This document shows positions 4,788-10,600 of a DNA stretch of 64,000 nucleotides, in pieces. The DNA is from Candidatus Hecatellales archaeon. GTDB lineage: Archaea > Thermoproteota > Bathyarchaeia > Hecatellales > Hecatellaceae. The notes beneath the pieces are model-generated. The model ran no database searches and had not been told where the DNA came from. It saw only the letters and a list, made by a program, of their open reading frames with translations. Positions within the stretch are counted from its first letter, which is position 1. Every line of letters begins with the position of its first letter. The DNA lies in the NCBI GenBank assembly GCA_003661965.1, contig QMXD01000001.1, positions 1,258 to 65,257 of the forward strand, written 5' to 3'. A program made the translations under genes and the position numbers.

Positions 4788-5105
4788 CTATTCAACAGTA
4801 ACTATCAGGTTTCTGTTTTCAGCAAGCATAATAGCAATTTTTCTTCTAGCATTTTCAAGACAACGCCAAAGCGTCCCCCTAGAAATCCCCATCCTACGAG
4901 CAGCTTCTTCTTGGGTTAAACCCTCATAAAATATAAGCCTATAAGCCTCAAACTCGTCGTAGGTCATATAGATAGGTGACCTATCAATTCTTGGGGTTCC
5001 ATTAGGGTTTAAAGGAACAAACTGGATTGTTCTAGGTTTTACGTTTATAATTCTAGGTTTCATAGGTCTACCTGGACCGCTCCACCTACGACGCCAAGTC
5101 CACAT
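4788..5105 (-). CDS. DUF134/UPF0251 family HTH protein (putative regulator of the Nif-like cluster)
   Basis: C-terminal sigma-70 region-4-like HTH (LTQEEAARRMGISRGTLWRCLENARRKIA). This family is classically adjacent to MinD-like 4Fe-4S ATPases and NifX-like genes. The conserved core probably starts at the internal Met (~5063). Confidence 0.6.
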   Translation of the reverse strand: MWTWRRRWSGPGRPMKPRIINVKPRTIQFVPLNPNGTPRIDRSPIYMTYDEFEAYRLIFYEGLTQEEAARRMGISRGTLWRCLENARRKIAIMLAENRNLIVTVE

Positions 5106-5182: not shown

Positions 5183-6052
5183 TTAACTCAAACCAAGAAA
5201 ACTGGTTATTCTACCCCAAACTCTCCTTATCTTTTCTGAGACATCAGAGTTTGGTGCATATTCAACAACAGGTTTTCCGTTGGTTAAAGCCTCAACAACA
5301 ATAGGGTTAAACGGTATTTTTTCAACAGCCTCAACCCCAGCCTCCCTACAAAAACCAACAATTTCCTCTGTTTTTTGCAGGTTTAAATCATACATGTTTA
5401 TAAGAACCATCGCTGGAATCCTAAAAAACCCTGTTAAATCCAAAATTCTTTGTAGGTCATGAAGACCTGAAACAGTAGGCTCTGTAATAACTAATGCAAG
5501 ATTAACCTCGCCAAGAGAAGCGATAACAGGACAACCTATCCCTGGAGGACCATCAACCAAAATAAGCTTTTTATCCTCTTTTAAGGCAAGGTTTTTAGCG
5601 TTATTTTTAACCAAGGTTACAAGCTTACCTGAATTAGACTCAGCAGCCTCAAGTTTTGCATGAACTAAGGGTCCATACCTTGTTCTTGAAACAAAAACAT
5701 ACCCTGAAACCTTCTCTTTTAAGGTTACAGCCTTAACAGGACATACATATGCACATACACCACAACCCTCACATAGGATAGGGTTAACCCTAAAATTTTT
5801 TATCGCATCAAACCTACAATGCTCCTCACATAACCCACATTTAACACATTTAGACTCATCTATTAAGGCAAGTTTTGAGCCTTTAAACTCCTCTTTAAAC
5901 TCAAGTTTTTCAGGTTTTAGGAGTAGATGTAGGTCTGGAGCATCAACATCACAATCAGCAACCACAAGGTTTTTTCCTAGAGAGGTTAGGGACGCAACCA
6001 AAGTTGTTTTTCCAGTTCCACCCTTCCCACTTAAAACAACAACCTGCTTCAT
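5183..6052 (-). CDS. MinD/Mrp-superfamily P-loop ATPase with inserted 2x[4Fe-4S] ferredoxin domain
   Basis: Walker A GKGGTGKTT, two CxxCxxCxxxCP clusters (CVKCGLCEEHC, CEGCGVCAYVCP). 4-nt overlap with the next gene. Confidence 0.8.
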   Translation of the reverse strand: MKQVVVLSGKGGTGKTTLVASLTSLGKNLVVADCDVDAPDLHLLLKPEKLEFKEEFKGSKLALIDESKCVKCGLCEEHCRFDAIKNFRVNPILCEGCGVCAYVCPVKAVTLKEKVSGYVFVSRTRYGPLVHAKLEAAESNSGKLVTLVKNNAKNLALKEDKKLILVDGPPGIGCPVIASLGEVNLALVITEPTVSGLHDLQRILDLTGFFRIPAMVLINMYDLNLQKTEEIVGFCREAGVEAVEKIPFNPIVVEALTNGKPVVEYAPNSDVSEKIRRVWGRITSFLGLS

Positions 6053-6894
6053 TTTCCCATCCTCTCCCTAATAGCCCTAAAAAGACCTGAAAACTTTTCT
6101 TTCCATTCAGGGTTTTCCTCAACCAAAGTTTTTCCTTGCGAATAAAGTTCAGCTATTTTTCGGCTATAGGGGATTTCAAGAAGTATAGGAATTTTTTCTT
6201 TCTCACAATATTTGTAGACATCCTTGTTTCCTATCCCAGCCTTATTAACAACAACACCAAACTTTATCCCCATCTTTTTAACAGTTTCAACCATAAGCCT
6301 TAAATCATATAAGCCAAAAGGTGTAGGTTCCGTGACAAGAATACAGAAGTCGCTTCCCTCAACCGAAGCTATAACAGGACAAGATGTTCCTGGTGGAGAA
6401 TCAACTATCACATTTTTTTCTTTAACAGCCTCCTTTTTCACCTCGTTTATTACTGGTACAGGTCTAGGTTCACCCACACTTAACCTACCAGAAACAAACA
6501 TTAAATTTTTTGAGTAGCCTTTTTCAACAACACCAACCTGTTTTTTATCTTCAGTTATAGCTTTTTTTGGGCAGATAAGTATACATCCTCCACAGTTATG
6601 GCATAACTCATAAAAAACCATAATTTTCCTAGGAACCACAACAATAGCATTATATTCACAAAACTCTGAACATTTTTTACAGAAGTCACAATTTTTTTCG
6701 TTGATTTTTGGGGTTAAAACGTGGACAGGTTTTTTCTCCACGATTTTAGGTTTTATAAATAGATGGCTGTTTGGCTCTTCAACATCACAGTCTAAAAGTT
6801 GGGCGTTATCTATGGATAAAGCCAAATTAACAGACACAAACGTTTTTCCAGTTCCACCCTTTCCACTCGCAACAGAAACAATCATCGTTGACAA
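6049..6894 (-). CDS. MinD/Mrp-superfamily P-loop ATPase with inserted ferredoxin domain (paralog)
   Basis: Walker A GKGGTGKTF, Cys clusters CDFCKKCSEFC / CHNCGGCILICP. Confidence 0.8.
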   Translation of the reverse strand: MSTMIVSVASGKGGTGKTFVSVNLALSIDNAQLLDCDVEEPNSHLFIKPKIVEKKPVHVLTPKINEKNCDFCKKCSEFCEYNAIVVVPRKIMVFYELCHNCGGCILICPKKAITEDKKQVGVVEKGYSKNLMFVSGRLSVGEPRPVPVINEVKKEAVKEKNVIVDSPPGTSCPVIASVEGSDFCILVTEPTPFGLYDLRLMVETVKKMGIKFGVVVNKAGIGNKDVYKYCEKEKIPILLEIPYSRKIAELYSQGKTLVEENPEWKEKFSGLFRAIRERMGK

Positions 6895-6936: not shown

Positions 6937-7386
6937 TTACTCATGTCTGTGCATTCTACAAACGTTTTCATCAGTTGCCATTTGAAGTTTTCCAGCCTGC
7001 CATGCACGGATAGCCTCTCTTACAGTCCCATAAGCACCAACATAAACTTCAACACCAAACCGTTCAAACATACGAACAGCCCTAGGACCAATCCCAGAAC
7101 AAATCATCACATCAACACCATGACTTCTCATTATTTCTGGTGGGAGACCACTACCACCCATATGTTCACTTGCATTTTGAATAACCTCAACCTTACCTGT
7201 TGACAAATCAACTATTGTAAAGGTTGGTGCTCTACCAAAATGTTCACATACCTCATCATCTAAGCCTCTCCAACCTAAGGTTGGAACACAAACCCTTAAA
7301 CCACCCATTCTTTTGGCTTCTTGGCTACGTGTTAACTCTAAAAGCTTTTTTCTCTTAATTTTTTCAAGCTCTTCATCTTCAGCCAT
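6937..7386 (-). CDS. NifX/NifB-like (dinitrogenase FeMo-cofactor-binding domain) protein with N-terminal coiled-coil motif
   Basis: The core (CVPTLGWRGLDDEVCEHFGRAPTFTIVDL...VMICSGIGPRAVRMFERFGVEVY) matches the NifX-NifB fold family. The N-terminus (EDEELEKIKRKKLLELTRSQEAK) matches the cluster-wide coiled-coil motif. ATG at 7386; the ORF track extends to TTG 7407. Confidence 0.7.
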   Translation of the reverse strand: MAEDEELEKIKRKKLLELTRSQEAKRMGGLRVCVPTLGWRGLDDEVCEHFGRAPTFTIVDLSTGKVEVIQNASEHMGGSGLPPEIMRSHGVDVMICSGIGPRAVRMFERFGVEVYVGAYGTVREAIRAWQAGKLQMATDENVCRMHRHE

Positions 7387-7440
7387 TCTAACCACCAAAA
7401 ATAACAAAAATGGTTATGTTGTTTATAGACTTAGATTCTT

Positions 7441-7758
7441 CTACTTTTTAAGTTCTTCAAGCCTTCTTCTTGTATCTTCAAGCTCCCTTTCAAGAGCTTT
7501 TGCCTGCTCTTCCAACATTGCTATCTCATCCTCTCTTGTTAAGGTTGGTGCTCCTGGAAAACTCCATGGTGTTATTGGACCGTAGATTCCTGTCCACCAC
7601 CATCTTGGAAGCCATGGGAACCATCTACAACGCCACCACCAATCCCATGGGAACCAGCTGTAAGCCCAATAGGTATAGTATGGTGTGTATGTGTAGCCGT
7701 AACCTCCGAAAAGGTATGGAAAAATAAACCATCCCCATGGACCTAAGCCAAAAGGCAT
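7441..7758 (-). CDS. Ultra-Trp/Tyr-rich low-complexity protein with C-terminal conserved coiled-coil
   Basis: 105 aa; the first ~70 aa are ~20% Trp (PWGWF, DWWW, RWWW, YTPYYTYW). C-terminus TREDEIAMLEEQAKALERELEDTRRRLEELKK. Strong SD GGAGGTG 6 nt upstream. Lies 54 nt upstream of the NifX-like gene on the same strand. Confidence 0.6.
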   Translation of the reverse strand: MPFGLGPWGWFIFPYLFGGYGYTYTPYYTYWAYSWFPWDWWWRCRWFPWLPRWWWTGIYGPITPWSFPGAPTLTREDEIAMLEEQAKALERELEDTRRRLEELKK

Positions 7759-7795
7759 GTTAGCACCTCCAAGGTTTATGGTCTGAGATGTTTAT

Positions 7796-7822
7796 GTGCA
7801 TTTGCATAAAATATATTTTTCG
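7796..7822. promoter_or_regulatory. Bidirectional promoter: TATA-like box plus palindromic operator GTGCATTTGCAT
   Basis: ATGTGCATTTGCATAAAATATATTTTT at 7794-7820. Sits between the divergent Trp-rich gene (-) and the radical SAM gene (+). The same motif occurs at 9964-9975 and 10578-10589. Confidence 0.55.
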
Positions 7823-7848: not shown

Positions 7849-8845
7849 AATGGGAGAATGGTCAACAGTATATGGACCTGTACCCTCATGGAGGCTAGGT
7901 TTTTCCCTCGGTATAGACCCTTTAAAACCACCAAAAACATGCACCTTCGACTGTATCTACTGTCAACTAGGTAAAACAGTTAAAAAAGTCTCAAAACCAG
8001 AGGATGTTTATCCCCATGTTTCCACGAGAAAAATTCTTAAAGACTTAGAAAAAACCCTAAAAAAAGTAGACTTAAAAAACGTAGACTATTTAACTTTTTC
8101 AGGGACTGGTGAGCCAACCCTAAACCCAAACCTTGGTGAGGTTGTGGATGAGGTTAAAAGGCTTATTAACGATAAGCCTATAGCAATCTTAACAAACTCA
8201 TCCTTGCTAGATAGGGAAACCGTTAGAAGAAGTCTTAAAAAAATGGATTTAGTTGTTGCAAAACTTGATGCTCCAAACCAGAAACTATTTAAAAAAATAA
8301 ATAGACCCTCTAACGGTATAACTTTAACCTCCATAATTAAAGGCTTAAAAAGTCTGAGAAAAGAATACTCCGGGAGACTTGCAATCCAAATAATGTTTGT
8401 TAAATCAACCATGGGTGAAAAATTAAACACGGAAAAAGAGGTTGTTGAAGGTTTAACAAGGATAATTGAAAAAGTCTCTCCAGATGAAGTTTACATAAAC
8501 ATACCTACAAGACCACCATCAGAAAACCATGTAACTATACCAGAAAACCAAGAAATAGAAAAAATATCTAAAATGTTTGGGGAAAGGCTTAACTGGATAA
8601 AAGTTGTTTCTAGGATGGCTACCAGTAAAACCTGGAAAAAAATGGAAAAAAAGGTTTTAGAGGATTTAGAGAAAAGAATAATGGAAACCTTAAAACGTAG
8701 ACCATGTAACCTTAAAGACCTAACTGAAATTTTTGGGGTCCCAGAAAAAACTTTAAGTCTTCATCTTAACAGTCTAGTGGAGAAAGGAAAAATTTTAGCT
8801 TTAAAATATCAGGGTTTAACCTACTATAAGTTGGCTAATCTTTAA
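7849..8845 (+). CDS. Radical SAM protein with C-terminal winged-helix domain
   Basis: CTFDCIYCQ (CxxxCxxC) after GPVPSWRLGFSLGI. C-terminal wHTH-like LNSLVEKGKILALKYQGLTYYKLA. ATG 7849 is preferred over ORF-track 7796, which overlaps the operator. Confidence 0.7.
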
Positions 8846-9188
8846 CAAGTCCAGCGTTTTTTATTGCTTCAGCAACCGTAATACCAGGTTCAACCTTAAT
8901 CTTTTCAATTTTGTTTTGTTCTAGGAGGGTTGTTGCTCCAGGACCTATCTCACCAGCTAAAACAACGTTAACGTTTGAGTCTGCAAGCATCTTAATAACT
9001 ATAGGTCCAACACCAGACTTATAGTCTAAAGCTGAGTTTCTAAGAACTTTTACATCCTTTATTTTTTTCTCTTCCAAGTCTACTATTGTAAAGGTGTTTG
9101 CTCTACTAAAAACCTCTGAAACAGTATCCTCTAAACCTTTATCACCGTTGGTTGGAACAGCAACCCTAATCTTCTTCAAAAAATTCAC
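8835..9188 (-). CDS. NifX/NifB-like cofactor-binding domain protein
   Basis: KIRVAVPTNGDKGLEDTVSEVFSRANTFTIVDL...VNVVLAGEIGPGA fits the dinitrogenase FeMo-cofactor-binding fold family. 117 aa. Confidence 0.7.
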   Translation of the reverse strand: MNFLKKIRVAVPTNGDKGLEDTVSEVFSRANTFTIVDLEEKKIKDVKVLRNSALDYKSGVGPIVIKMLADSNVNVVLAGEIGPGATTLLEQNKIEKIKVEPGITVAEAIKNAGLVKD

Positions 9189-9204: not shown

Positions 9205-9735
9205 TTAGGTTTTTTGGGTTTTTGAACGTTCAAGAAGCTTTTTTAACTCATCCATCCTAGCCTTTACACCCTTAATTTCCTCTTCTAAATCCTTCTTATA
9301 AGCCTCCAACGATGCTAACTCCTCTTCTGGTGTCTGTTGGATTGGTGGATAAGTTGGCATTGGTGGAAACATCATTGGAAACATTGAAGGTTGATTTTGC
9401 TGGGTTGTTGAGGTTTTAGGTGAACTTTTTAACTCTTCTATTCTTCTACGGATCTCCTCAATTTGGCTTTCAAGCATTTTTGCCTGCTGCTCTAAAAACT
9501 GTTTTTCCTGCTCCCTTGTTGGTGCCTGTTGGAAAGGATAGGGAAACGTTGACTGTGGAGCTATAGGCTGGGTGGGAGGCTGTGCTGGTTGGGGTATTAA
9601 ACCGCTTTGAATTAGCCATTGGGCTGTTGGTGGGAGACCTGTTGGAGACCTGCCAAGCCATCCTGGTGAATAGCCAAACCTAAGCCATCCAGGTAAACCT
9701 GTTAAGTAATACATTCTCCTCCAACGGTAACCCAA
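9205..9735 (-). CDS. Pro/Gln-rich low-complexity protein with two coiled-coil segments; in-frame continuation of the upstream Trp-rich ORF
   Basis: TREQEKQFLEQQAKMLESQIEEIRRRIEELKS matches the cluster motif. Same reading frame as 9742-9948, separated only by TGA 9742-9744 plus two codons. Confidence 0.55.
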   Translation of the reverse strand: MGYRWRRMYYLTGLPGWLRFGYSPGWLGRSPTGLPPTAQWLIQSGLIPQPAQPPTQPIAPQSTFPYPFQQAPTREQEKQFLEQQAKMLESQIEEIRRRIEELKSSPKTSTTQQNQPSMFPMMFPPMPTYPPIQQTPEEELASLEAYKKDLEEEIKGVKARMDELKKLLERSKTQKT

Positions 9736-9741
9736 ACTTTC

Positions 9742-9948
9742 TCACCACCATCTAGGTGTATAGTATGGTGTGTATGGTAAGCTTCCTGTGAAAATGTATG
9801 GGGCTAAAAACCACCAACACCATCCTCTACCAAACCACCATCCTGGTCTTTGCCATGGTGGTAGCCAGCTCCATGGACCTCTTCCAGGCCATGGTCCTAT
9901 CCATCCTCCACGTCCTCTACCAAACCAACCCCAAGCCATATTTTTCAC
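9742..9948 (-). CDS. Ultra-Trp/Arg/Gly/Pro-rich small protein, possibly the N-domain of a split gene
   Basis: 68 aa, ~20% Trp (GWWFGRGWCWW, PWSWLPPW). Shares YTPYYT with the 7441-7758 paralog. Ends ...RWW-TGA. Confidence 0.5.
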   Translation of the reverse strand: MKNMAWGWFGRGRGGWIGPWPGRGPWSWLPPWQRPGWWFGRGWCWWFLAPYIFTGSLPYTPYYTPRWW

Positions 9949-9963
9949 CTCTAAAAGAATTTG

Positions 9964-9984
9964 TGCATATGCACATATTTAAGT
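9964..9984. promoter_or_regulatory. Promoter/operator: perfect 12-bp palindrome GTGCATATGCAC next to an AT-rich TATA-like box
   Basis: Minus-strand reading CTTAAATATGTGCATATGCAC. Sits 15 nt upstream of the ATG of 9742-9948, followed by SD GAGGTGA. Confidence 0.5.
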
Positions 9985-9985
9985 T

Positions 9986-10558
9986 TTACTCGCCCCTAAG
10001 CTCCTTAAGCCTCCGTTTAATCTCCTCAAGCTGTTGCTGTAAAATCCTCATCTGATTTTCAAGCATCATAATTTCCTGTTCTTTGTTTGGGGAGGGTGGA
10101 GGTGTTGGTGGGGGTGAGGGTGGAGTCCAACCCATACCCCTACCAAAACCCATACCTCTCCCCATACCCATGCCCATACCTCTACCCATTCCTCTTCCCA
10201 TACCAAAACCTGGACCGAAACCTGGAGCAAAAGCTTCTCTAAGTCTTCCAGCCTTATATGCTTCGATAGCCTCTCTTACAGTGCCAAAAGCTCCAGTAAA
10301 AATTTTTACACCTGCGGACGCTAAAACTTGGTAGGAGTTTGGACCTACATTTCCTGTGATAACAGCTTCAACCCCCTCATTAACGACTGTTTGAGCTGCC
10401 TGTATTCCTGCTCCACTTAAGGCTGAGGCGCTTGTGTTTGGTATTGCCTTAAAACTCATTGTGTCTGTGTCTACGATAATAAAGTATGCACATCTACCAA
10501 ACCTTGGGTCTATTTGGGCATCTAAACTTGGAGCAACAGCGGTTACACACACCTTCAT
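9986..10558 (-). CDS. NifX/NifB-like cofactor-binding domain protein with C-terminal GMGR (RGG-like) repeat, Pro-rich linker and conserved coiled-coil
   Basis: N-terminal 105 aa NifX-like (CVTAVAPS...RFGRCAYFIIVD...VEAVITGNVGPNSY). Followed by GFGPGFGMGRGMGRGMGMGMGRGMGFGRGMG, then PPSPPPTPPPSP, then EQEIMMLENQMRILQQQLEEIKRRLKELRGE. Confidence 0.7.
   Translation of the reverse strand: MKVCVTAVAPSLDAQIDPRFGRCAYFIIVDTDTMSFKAIPNTSASALSGAGIQAAQTVVNEGVEAVITGNVGPNSYQVLASAGVKIFTGAFGTVREAIEAYKAGRLREAFAPGFGPGFGMGRGMGRGMGMGMGRGMGFGRGMGWTPPSPPPTPPPSPNKEQEIMMLENQMRILQQQLEEIKRRLKELRGE
10088..10228 (-). repeat. Degenerate tandem ~9-bp coding repeat (CCCATACCY units on plus strand) encoding the GMGR/Pro-rich region
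   Basis: Visible periodic catacccat/catacctct/cccatgccc units on the plus strand. Confidence 0.6.
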
Positions 10559-10577
10559 TTTTCATACCTATGAAAGA

Positions 10578-10600
10578 GTGCATTTGCACAAAATATAAAG
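10578..10600. promoter_or_regulatory. Promoter/operator: GTGCATTTGCAC palindrome plus TATA-like box
   Basis: Minus-strand reading CTTTATATTTTGTGCAAATGCAC. Sits 19 nt upstream of the ATG of 9986-10558. 18/19 identical to the 7794-7820 site. Confidence 0.55.

Follow-up and report, generated by a model that had tools for sequence, protein, structure and literature searches.

What could a small protein do in which every fifth residue of the first 70 is a Trp? The question is raised by an open reading frame (ORF) at positions 7441–7758, minus strand, of a 64,000-nucleotide stretch of DNA (the window) from a Candidatus Hecatellales archaeon. We report that 7441–7758 is a real gene under protein-level selection, that its product is a predicted small cytoplasmic protein of the DUF5320 family, and that it belongs to a DUF5320 subfamily whose hallmark is the near-invariant motif CRWFPWLPRWWW(T/A)G.YGP. 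We further propose that its Trp-rich part is a separately encoded module resembling the tail of IssA (PF2025), the protein with which Pyrococcus furiosus keeps a store of iron and sulfur in the form of thioferrate nanoparticles (PMC5524996), and that a coiled coil brings this module to NifX-like proteins. To this second proposal, inferred from composition, gene order, and regulation, we give nearly, but not quite, even weight.

The Trp-Rich ORF Is a Protein-Coding Gene

The gene and the elements read directly from it are as follows:
7441–7758, minus: Trp-rich DUF5320 gene, 105 amino acids (aa), ATG start; recognized from ORF translation, composition, PF17253, and an identical NCBI protein
7764–7770, minus: Shine-Dalgarno (SD) sequence GGAGGTG, 5 nt 5' of the ATG
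7576–7632, minus: core motif RCRWFPWLPRWWWTGIYGP, residues 43–61, holding the single Cys44 and five near-invariant Trp
7447–7536, minus: amphipathic helix/coiled-coil tail, residues 75–104, a helix in the AlphaFold2 (AF2) model and the main region matched by the DUF5320 hidden Markov model (HMM)

The product (MPFGLGPWGWFIFPYLFGGYGYTYTPYYTYWAYSWFPWDWWWRCRWFPWLPRWWWTGIYGPITPWSFPGAPTLTREDEIAMLEEQAKALERELEDTRRRLEELKK) has two parts, an aromatic, Gly- and Pro-rich one at the N-terminus that includes one Cys and a coiled coil at the C-terminus; it contains 14 Trp, 9 Tyr, 7 Phe, 11 Pro, and 9 Gly. Trp makes up 13.3% of the protein and, as a preliminary description of this DNA had put it, 20% of the N-terminal 70 aa (14/70); the strings quoted there are found in the sequence, and the strong SD, the operon membership, and the C-terminal coiled-coil tail that it listed are all present. 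By comparison, Trp averages 1.0% in the 57 window ORFs of 150 aa or more (window GC content 38%). Only two window ORFs, 7441–7758 and 9742–9948, reach 14 Trp per 70-aa stretch, the next highest count belonging to an antisense by-product. With the TGG frequency set generously at 0.02, at least 14 Trp in 70 codons would occur with a probability of 1e-10, or ~1e-5 when corrected for all positions and both strands.

A protein identical to the product, labeled hypothetical, has been deposited from a Candidatus Hecatellales archaeon metagenome-assembled genome (MAG). Homologs numbered 77, mostly 73–140 aa long, and came from MAGs of Bathyarchaeia and other Thermoproteota. When the family profile was searched against 1.84 billion protein representatives, 587 cluster representatives were recovered at E ≤ 1e-3 and 67 at E ≤ 1e-10.

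That the ORF is a compositional artifact, or that the real gene lies on the opposite strand, might be argued from the antisense frames 7313–7585, 7470–7727, and 7543–7743, which are all open, one of them with 10 Trp. However, the sense frame gave the best synonymous:nonsynonymous counts of the frames against three orthologs (24:20, 23:19, and 29:24), while the frame of 7470–7727 gave 1:42, 4:40, and 3:50. The frame of 7313–7585 has the sense wobble positions in common, and its ratio was still worse than that of the sense frame. These substitution patterns lend no support to 7313–7585 and 7470–7727, the two ORFs that the preliminary description had held out as possible real genes. In addition, the sense frame has a Pfam match, the SD, a promoter with an operator, and hundreds of homologs that vary synonymously around an invariant motif, so that its composition is not a frame artifact, as had been claimed at the outset. 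We therefore regard the nongene reading as effectively refuted, its chance next to nil, and 7441–7758 as almost certainly a genuine gene.

Antisense ORF 7543–7743 (plus strand, 67 aa) holds its 10 Trp because sense CCA (Pro) codons read TGG on the opposite strand; its ratios, 1:52 to 4:40, mark it as noncoding.

A Near-Invariant Cys/Arg/Trp Motif Marks a DUF5320 Subfamily

Against Pfam PF17253 (DUF5320), the protein scored 28.7 bits (gathering cutoff 27; E = 3.2e-6), with residues 40–103 aligned to HMM positions 43–99, and a precomputed PF17253 assignment was present for 65 of the 77 homologs. Heptad-spaced Leu/Ile can be read in the tail, whose coiled coil is acidic, and the same type of tail recurs in 9986–10558 and 9205–9735. 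In the AF2 model, the helix at residues 75–104 had a predicted local distance difference test score (pLDDT) of 73–90, compared with 46–68 for the N-terminal part and a mean of 63.8; the mean for a second Trp-rich protein (9742–9939) was 53.1. No confident AF2 fold was obtained for the Trp-rich part of either protein, the coiled coil alone being confident, and a structure-based annotation was dropped because of these low means.

The protein resembles DUF5320 as defined by Pfam in having a C-terminal coiled coil after a low-complexity N-terminal part. It also follows the family in its association with Nitro_FeMo-Co domains, including natural NifX-DUF5320 fusions, an empirical feature that comes from this analysis and lies outside the Pfam definition. 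It differs from DUF5320 in general by the Trp-rich N-terminal part and CRWFPWLPRWWW, which mark a distinct subfamily.

Conservation in related genomes, the check that the preliminary description had proposed, is pronounced, with W46, W49, and W53–W55 near-invariant in the homologs. In a 49-sequence alignment, the columns conserved at 90% or more were R43, C44, R45, W46, F47, W49, L50, P51, R52, W53, W54, W55, G57, and G60, and P48 and Y59 were invariant. CRWFPWLPRWWW is invariant in homologs from archaea and bacteria while synonymous codon positions differ: across 46 motif instances from both domains, C-R-W-F-P-W-L-P-R-W-W-W is almost unchanged, and the Cys, Arg, Phe, Pro, and Leu codons drift at synonymous positions. 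Since the amino acids are fixed and the codons vary, what is conserved is the peptide rather than an element of the DNA or RNA. A scan for WLPRWWW in one genome per species found it in at least 599 places; 103 relatives were confirmed, and 80 loci from many archaeal and bacterial phyla were fetched, to which the locus counts below refer.

Four short conserved modules appear in varying combinations in the proteins of this group, set in sequence rich in Trp, Tyr, Phe, Gly, Pro, and Arg: module 1, PWPGRGPFSYLPPWQRPGW; module 2, C(R/A)RFPWLPRWWW; module 3, YRWRRMYYLTGLPGW.RFGYS; and module 4, a coiled coil at the C-terminus with the pattern KE.EI.MLE...L...I.KRLEELKK. All four are encoded in the window, where 7441–7758 combines module 2 with the coiled coil, 9742–9939 carries module 1 and no coiled coil, and 9205–9735 carries module 3 and two coiled coils. 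Many bacterial members of the Trp-rich motif family lack the coiled coil altogether.

The preliminary description had also likened the composition to aromatic, sticker-type low-complexity domains. Purely composition-driven regions, however, would not keep a 12- to 19-residue motif invariant across domains of life. A related possibility is that Arg/Gly/aromatic stickers together with the coiled coil phase-separate or bind G-quadruplex (G4) structures or RNA. The RG/aromatic composition and the disorder predicted by AF2 would fit, and a Methanosarcina DUF5320 protein has been flagged in a scan for G4-binding motifs (PMC7565180). Against this stand the invariance of the motif, which exceeds mere composition, the presence of just three Arg in the N-terminal part of the 7441–7758 protein, and the constant partners of the family, which are metal-cluster proteins, not nucleic-acid enzymes. 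We thus consider a nucleic-acid-binding or condensate-forming role improbable.

The Gene Belongs to a Conserved Operon That Also Holds NifX-like and MinD-like Genes

The operon of 7441–7758 and its divergent neighbor comprise the following:
6937–7407, minus: tail-less NifB/NifX-type (Nitro_FeMo-Co) gene, PF02579 E = 4.7e-25; probable start ATG at 7383
6049–6894, minus: MinD/ParA-type P-loop ATPase with a 4Fe-4S ferredoxin insert, similar to Orp3/Orp4 (Pfam CbiA, ParA, Fer4)
5183–6052, minus: second MinD/ParA-type ATPase with a 4Fe-4S ferredoxin insert (Pfam Fer4, ParA, CbiA)
4788–5105, minus: DUF134 protein with a sigma-70 region-4-type helix-turn-helix (HTH), last gene of the operon (PF02001 E = 2.1e-20; Sigma70_r4_2)
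7850–8845, plus, divergent: radical S-adenosylmethionine (SAM) protein with a C-terminal ArsR-type winged HTH (Pfam Radical_SAM, HTH_5)

The Trp-rich gene is promoter-proximal and is followed by the NifX-like gene directly 3' of it, the two MinD-like 4Fe-4S ATPase genes, and the DUF134 gene; 7441–7758 and 6937–7407 are in frame, with three stops between them. This arrangement recurs well beyond the Hecatellales. A NifX-like ORF lies directly downstream of the Trp-motif gene on the same strand in 60 of the 80 loci, including ones from Bathyarchaeia, Hadesarchaea, DPANN, Methanocellales, Thermoplasmata, Omnitrophica, WOR-3, Clostridia, Planctomycetia, and others, and MinD-like genes are found in 50 of the 80. 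In archaeal and bacterial loci alike, the downstream NifX-like genes are often fusions of NifX, a low-complexity part, and a coiled coil.

The 6937–7407 product itself carries an N-terminal helix-like extension, EDEELEKIKRKKLLEL (7336–7383, minus), of the form (D/E)(F/E)ELE.I(K/R)RKKLLEL. The extension is kept in L001 1996–2469, L002 6320–6784, L003 6379–6852, and L018 6274–6732 and was not found in other NifX-like paralogs. It is a candidate pairing partner for the coiled coil of DUF5320.

The divergent radical SAM gene raises the possibility that the Trp-rich protein is a precursor, similar to a ribosomally synthesized and post-translationally modified peptide (RiPP), modified at Trp or Cys by the 7850–8845 enzyme. 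Radical SAM enzymes crosslink Trp in other peptides, and the two genes are adjacent and have an operator-bearing intergenic region in common. However, homologs of the radical SAM gene (cluster motif CTFDCIYC) are present in only 22 of the 80 loci, and its product carries a DNA-binding winged HTH. No NCBIfam family matched that product above threshold (best 49.9 bits vs. a cutoff of 380), including those of the SPASM or peptide-maturase kind, and its nearest solved structures in the PDB are distant viperin-like enzymes. The peptide, moreover, is strongly conserved rather than hypervariable and has a coiled-coil tail instead of a leader/core layout. A RiPP-like role therefore appears very unlikely. 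The 7850–8845 gene was also considered as an ortholog of the radical SAM gene near P. furiosus issA, which was rejected (23% identity; E = 0.002).

Alternatively, the Trp/aromatic segment might be an anchor that tethers a NifX/MinD complex at the membrane interface or the cell pole. Trp and Tyr favor membrane interfaces, and the N-terminus of the 7441–7758 protein, MPFGLGPWGWFIFPYLFGG, is hydrophobic-aromatic. In a related system, that of the ORP proteins, MrpORP localizes to the cell pole (PMC6345978). On the other hand, Pro and Gly often break the aromatic stretches, AF2 gives no confident helix there, the Gly/Arg-rich relatives of the family are not hydrophobic, and IssA particles are cytoplasmic (PMC5524996). 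We consider a membrane-interface anchor unlikely, if slightly less so than the nucleic-acid role.

A Palindromic Operator Is Common to the Trp-Rich Genes and issA

Three copies of a palindrome were identified in the window:
7795–7808, unstranded: palindrome TGTGCATTTGCATA, 37 nt upstream of the Trp-rich gene, in the intergenic region common to the divergent radical SAM gene
9962–9975, unstranded: perfect palindrome TGTGCATATGCACA, upstream of 9742–9939, with the same sequence as the site that precedes P. furiosus issA
10577–10590, unstranded: third copy, AGTGCATTTGCACA on the plus strand and TGTGCAAATGCACT on the minus (gene) strand, upstream of the fusion gene 9986–10558 and directly after the TATA-like TTTATATTT

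Their consensus is the 14-bp palindrome TGTGCA-NN-TGCACA, for which the window yielded six strand hits, compared with 0.31 expected; none of 100 shuffles reached six. At each of the three promoters of the cluster, the palindrome stands right behind an A/T-rich, TATA-like box and before the first gene of the unit. (A scan for sigma-70 promoters and terminators is uninformative here, the host being an archaeon.) In the fetched loci, 55 sites were found in 704 kb vs. ~1 in shuffles; 32 of the 55 lie no more than 120 bp upstream of a Trp-rich gene, and the sites are often in tandem. The lineages represented include Bathyarchaeia, DPANN, Thermoplasmata, and a Thermococcus.

The issA ATG of P. furiosus has a perfect TGTGCATATGCACA 20 nt upstream of it, and a second palindrome faces the divergent MinD/ferredoxin genes (L082, sites 5968–5981 and 5885–5898). 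The layout of TATA box, operator, SD, and ATG is identical at the window promoters and at issA. Since the operator is common to both, issA and the Trp-rich genes apparently belong to one conserved regulon, and the position of the palindrome right after the TATA box suggests repression. TGTGCA-NN-TGCACA thus looks like the operator of a putative repressor of an Fe-S regulon. The DUF134 protein of the operon (4788–5105) is, by inference only, a candidate regulator. A literature search with the palindrome sequence returned no relevant paper, and the literature matches for DUF134 were all unrelated.

Two loci in the Thermococcales deserve mention beside these data. In Thermococcus sp. (L081, 3238–3417), a stand-alone, W/G/R-rich protein of 59 aa (P0105) has the PWPGRGPFSYLPPWQRPGW motif and no Cys; its gene lies between genes for a ParA-like ATPase and a metallo-beta-lactamase-fold protein, with a perfect operator upstream (L081, 3217–3230), and the locus broadly recalls the layout of the P. 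furiosus issA locus. In P. furiosus COM1 (L082, 4084–5836), the MinD/ParA and ferredoxin genes divergent from issA are called as fragments of 68–141 aa, as if disrupted, and the region just downstream of issA holds an IS605-type transposase and a resolvase.

The operator and the operon also bear on the analogy with Trp/Pro/Arg-rich antimicrobial peptides such as indolicidin and tritrpticin that the preliminary description had drawn. As a secreted antimicrobial peptide or bacteriocin, the protein would be accounted for by compositional resemblance only. Its gene lies in a cluster of NifX-like, MinD-like, and DUF134 genes, an operon with cytoplasmic Fe-S proteins that is conserved in two domains of life, and has an operator in common with P. 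furiosus issA. In the annotated neighborhood of 7441–7758, no export or immunity genes were seen; the tail is an acidic coiled coil, and selection is strongly purifying rather than diversifying. Inspected by eye only, the N-terminus (MPFGLGPWGW...) has no basic n-region and no AxA-type cleavage site, and both the acidic coiled coil and the Fe-S operon speak against export. We see only a slight chance, below even that of the RiPP-like reading, that the analogy extends to function.

A Second Transcription Unit Encodes Related Modules

Upstream of 7441–7758, a second transcription unit encodes a NifX-DUF5320 fusion, a second Trp-rich protein, a double-coiled-coil DUF5320 protein, and a second NifX-like protein:
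9986–10558, minus: NifX-like domain, Gly/Arg/Met-rich and Pro-rich region, and DUF5320 coiled coil (PF02579 87.8 bits; PF17253 53.1 bits)
9742–9939, minus: second Trp-rich gene, 65 aa, ATG at 9939; 14 Trp, net charge +6, one Cys
9205–9735, minus: DUF5320 protein with N-terminal motif YRWRRMYYLTGLPGWLRFGYS and two coiled-coil segments (PF17253 42 bits)
8835–9188, minus: second tail-less NifX-like gene (PF02579)

The ORF 9742–9948 (14 Trp in 68 aa, 20.6%) had been described as a downstream paralog of 7441–7758. It is in fact upstream and in a separate transcription unit. It does have the same Trp-rich composition, and the YTPYYT motif is present; yet YTPYYT is not conserved among its orthologs and does not establish paralogy. 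The gene 9742–9939 has no Pfam match and belongs to the family of motif PWPGRGPFSYLPPWQRPGW, with 44 homologs that include Thermococcus proteins. We conclude that it represents a motif family related to, but distinct from, that of 7441–7758.

The 9742–9939 gene ends in TGG TGG TGA, and the next gene begins 6 nt on in the same frame (9735–9750, minus), its SD-like sequence GGTGGTGA being made of the Trp codons and the stop. This layout is kept in two relatives, L002 5015–5032 and L018 3977–3994, one of which has tandem stops. With 9742–9948 and 9205–9735 in the same frame and a TGA between them, readthrough, selenocysteine, and a pseudogene were considered and rejected: these are two separate genes, because L002 has tandem TGA TAG, the orthologs of 9205–9735 begin with ATG in L002 and L018, and TGGTGGTGA is SD-like.

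In a related Hecatellales MAG, the ortholog of 9986–10558 (L002 4399–4758) is 119 aa long vs. 190 aa; it lacks the Gly/Arg/Met-rich and Pro-rich region, and of the coiled coil the last part alone is left. The low-complexity linker of 9986–10558 is therefore evolutionarily labile, or collapsed in assembly. As for 8835–9188, a 107-aa composite query, mostly of this gene with short IssA-derived ends, was 48% identical to IssA (P0170; E = 2.8e-16), an identity inflated by query ends that came from IssA primer sequences.

Could the Trp-Rich Part Act as an IssA-like Tail in Trans?

IssA consists of a NifB/NifX-type domain and a 70-aa cationic, aromatic, Gly-rich tail that holds its only Cys; its authors predict the tail to be unstructured alone and propose that it wraps the anionic Fe-S chain (thioferrate) assembled on the NifX-type domain (PMC5524996). 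Across IssA-like tails the sequence is not conserved, and what is conserved is the prevalence of Trp, Gly, and Arg (PMC5524996). In Methanococcus voltae accumulating thioferrate-like iron, tail-less NifX-type homologs of IssA are up-expressed (PMC8516115). We compared the composition of the IssA tail with that of the Trp-rich proteins, the values for the Trp-motif family being medians of 154 sequences:
IssA tail (P0170): 72 aa; Trp 11.1%, Pro 15.3%, Arg + Lys 9.7%, Asp + Glu 0%; net charge +7; one Cys
Trp-motif family, non-coiled-coil part: median 71 aa; Trp 13.1%, Pro 14.4%, Arg + Lys 8.8%, Asp + Glu 0.9%; net charge +4; a single Cys in 90% of members
Second Trp-rich family: 81 aa; Trp 15.3%; net charge +7
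N-terminal part of 7441–7758: Trp 19%, Pro 15%, Gly 12%; net charge +2; one Cys

On the proposed reading, the ~70-aa N-terminal part, rich in Trp, Tyr, Phe, Gly, and Pro, cationic, and with a single Cys, would be the separately encoded counterpart of the IssA C-terminal tail. The NifX-type domains are mostly tail-less (6937–7407 and 8835–9188), and the tail-like modules are genes of their own (7441–7758 and 9742–9939). The Trp-rich part may then act on Fe-S material assembled by the tail-less NifX-like partners, with the DUF5320 coiled coil, also present in 9986–10558 and 9205–9735, uniting tails and NifX domains by oligomerization. Arg would supply charge, Trp and Tyr would supply cation-pi and stacking contacts, and the invariant Cys is a possible ligand of iron or sulfide. 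The whole gene set appears coregulated by the repressor-type operator, which also precedes issA in P. furiosus.

A more specific version of this proposal extends it to the small Trp-rich proteins of both the CRWFPWLPRWWW and PWPGRGPFSYLPPWQRPGW families, which would be the trans-acting, mineral-handling peptides of a system widespread in anaerobes. In concert with tail-less NifX-like proteins, these peptides would serve to nucleate, cap, or solubilize a thioferrate-like iron-sulfide polymer, the invariant Cys/Arg/Trp motif clamping the Fe-S chain, and all would belong to one ancient operator regulon that includes the issA of the Thermococcales and is possibly controlled by DUF134. We advance this version tentatively and with distinctly less assurance than the tail-like module itself.

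Several observations weigh against the proposal that the Trp-rich part works as a tail in trans. The HMMs of both Trp-rich families score the IssA tail like 2000 shuffles of it (z = 0.67 and 0.28; of the 2000 shuffled tails, 437 and 697 scored no lower than the real one), and the tail does not match Pfam DUF5320 (E = 8.1). Sequence homology between the IssA tail and the Trp-rich families was therefore rejected, and in the absence of order-specific homology the parallel is compositional, contextual, and regulatory only. Charge is the weakest match, the N-terminal part of 7441–7758 being only weakly cationic (+2 vs. +7). Unlike IssA, which is without a coiled coil, the 7441–7758 protein carries both a coiled coil and an invariant motif; position-independent wrapping would not need an invariant motif of 12–19 residues, which suggests a specific docking or binding site and is no less compatible with one than with loose electrostatic wrapping. 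DUF5320 is mentioned in the searchable literature only twice, both times incidentally. Finally, P. furiosus without IssA still makes thioferrate-like iron (PMC8219758), and the role of the IssA tail itself is accordingly only a proposed one.

The main rival accordingly takes the motif as an interface: CRWFPWLPRWWW would bind a NifX-like or MinD-like partner, and the coiled coil would oligomerize an ORP-like Fe-S maturation complex, without contact to Fe-S material. A motif held invariant across bacteria and archaea while its codons drift synonymously is what one typically sees at a specific interface; the synteny with NifX-like and MinD-like genes is tight, and the motifs combine variously with coiled coils in different proteins. 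The ORP complex of Desulfovibrio vulgaris is, moreover, a multiprotein assembly of such components (PMC6345978). However, a docking adaptor leaves unexplained why the family is cationic, acid-free, and single-Cys outside the motif, mirroring the IssA tail, and many bacterial members are without the coiled coil through which the adaptor would act. We consider docking rather unlikely overall, although the antimicrobial, RiPP, membrane-anchor, and nucleic-acid readings are less likely still.

Significance

The 7441–7758 protein is already catalogued as DUF5320 or as hypothetical. In the searchable literature, we found no description of the Trp-rich motif subfamily, its sister family, the modular relation to IssA, or the common operator; searches for PF17253 and PF02579 gave nothing relevant, and searches with the domains of the cluster gave nothing describing a Trp-rich subfamily. 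By analogy, the kind of system proposed here is IssA/NifX-type Fe-S handling with trans-encoded tails.

Our understanding of iron and sulfide storage, detoxification, and trafficking in strict anaerobes is poor, and the role of the IssA tail is only a proposal. Against this background, tail-like modules occur as separate, strongly conserved genes with a Cys/Arg/Trp motif, beside tail-less NifX-type proteins and with the operator of issA. If the mineral-handling reading is true, IssA-type Fe-S storage would be modular and far wider than the fused protein of the Thermococcales suggests, reaching Bathyarchaeia, DPANN, Hadesarchaea, and many anaerobic bacterial phyla. The locus offers handles in a defined motif, a single Cys, predicted partners, a cis-element, and a candidate regulator in DUF134, and it provides a first functional context for two families of unknown function, DUF5320 and DUF134. 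The family is also among the most Trp-rich conserved protein families likely to be met, which is of interest to protein chemistry in itself.

Comparison with Known Systems

Among the systems that the 7441–7758 protein may be set beside are Trp-rich cationic antimicrobial peptides. Indolicidin and tritrpticin are secreted host-defense peptides of mammals, ~13 residues long. Likeness to them lies in high Trp, Pro, and Arg within a short stretch; unlike them, the 7441–7758 product is 105 aa long, carries an acidic coiled coil, and is conserved in prokaryotic Fe-S gene clusters.

A second system is the Desulfovibrio ORP cluster, an anaerobe-specific combination of single-domain Nitro_FeMo-Co proteins and paired MinD-like ATPases, each with two 4Fe-4S motifs (PMC6345978). 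Pfam assignments place an ORP-like set of this kind in the window (6049–6894, 5183–6052, 6937–7407, and 8835–9188). A two-domain MrpORP, in which an Mrp/NBP35 P-loop is joined to Nitro_FeMo-Co, was not found in the window, where matches to NF041136 were partial and reached 30–55 bits vs. a cutoff of 450. Regulation also differs, with sigma-54 in Desulfovibrio and a TATA-proximal palindrome here, and among the five members listed for the D. vulgaris complex none resembles DUF5320 or a Trp-rich protein (PMC6345978).

A third system is IssA. To our knowledge, it is the only characterized thioferrate-binding protein and the one characterized combination of a NifX-type domain with a Trp/Gly/Arg-rich tail. 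Unlike in IssA, the Trp-rich module of the window is a separate polypeptide, and the NifX domain resides in 6937–7407, 8835–9188, and 9986–10558; the 7441–7758 protein itself has no PF02579 match and so no Nitro_FeMo-Co domain in the same polypeptide. The fusion protein 9986–10558 does show a NifX-plus-tail architecture like that of IssA. The Trp-rich part otherwise shares with the IssA tail its length of ~70 aa, a W/G/P/R-rich, nearly acid-free, cationic composition with a single Cys, and the lack of a confident fold. The likeness extends to context, through the tie to a NifB/NifX-type domain and the neighboring MinD-like 4Fe-4S ATPases, and to regulation, with the TGTGCATATGCACA operator directly behind the TATA box.

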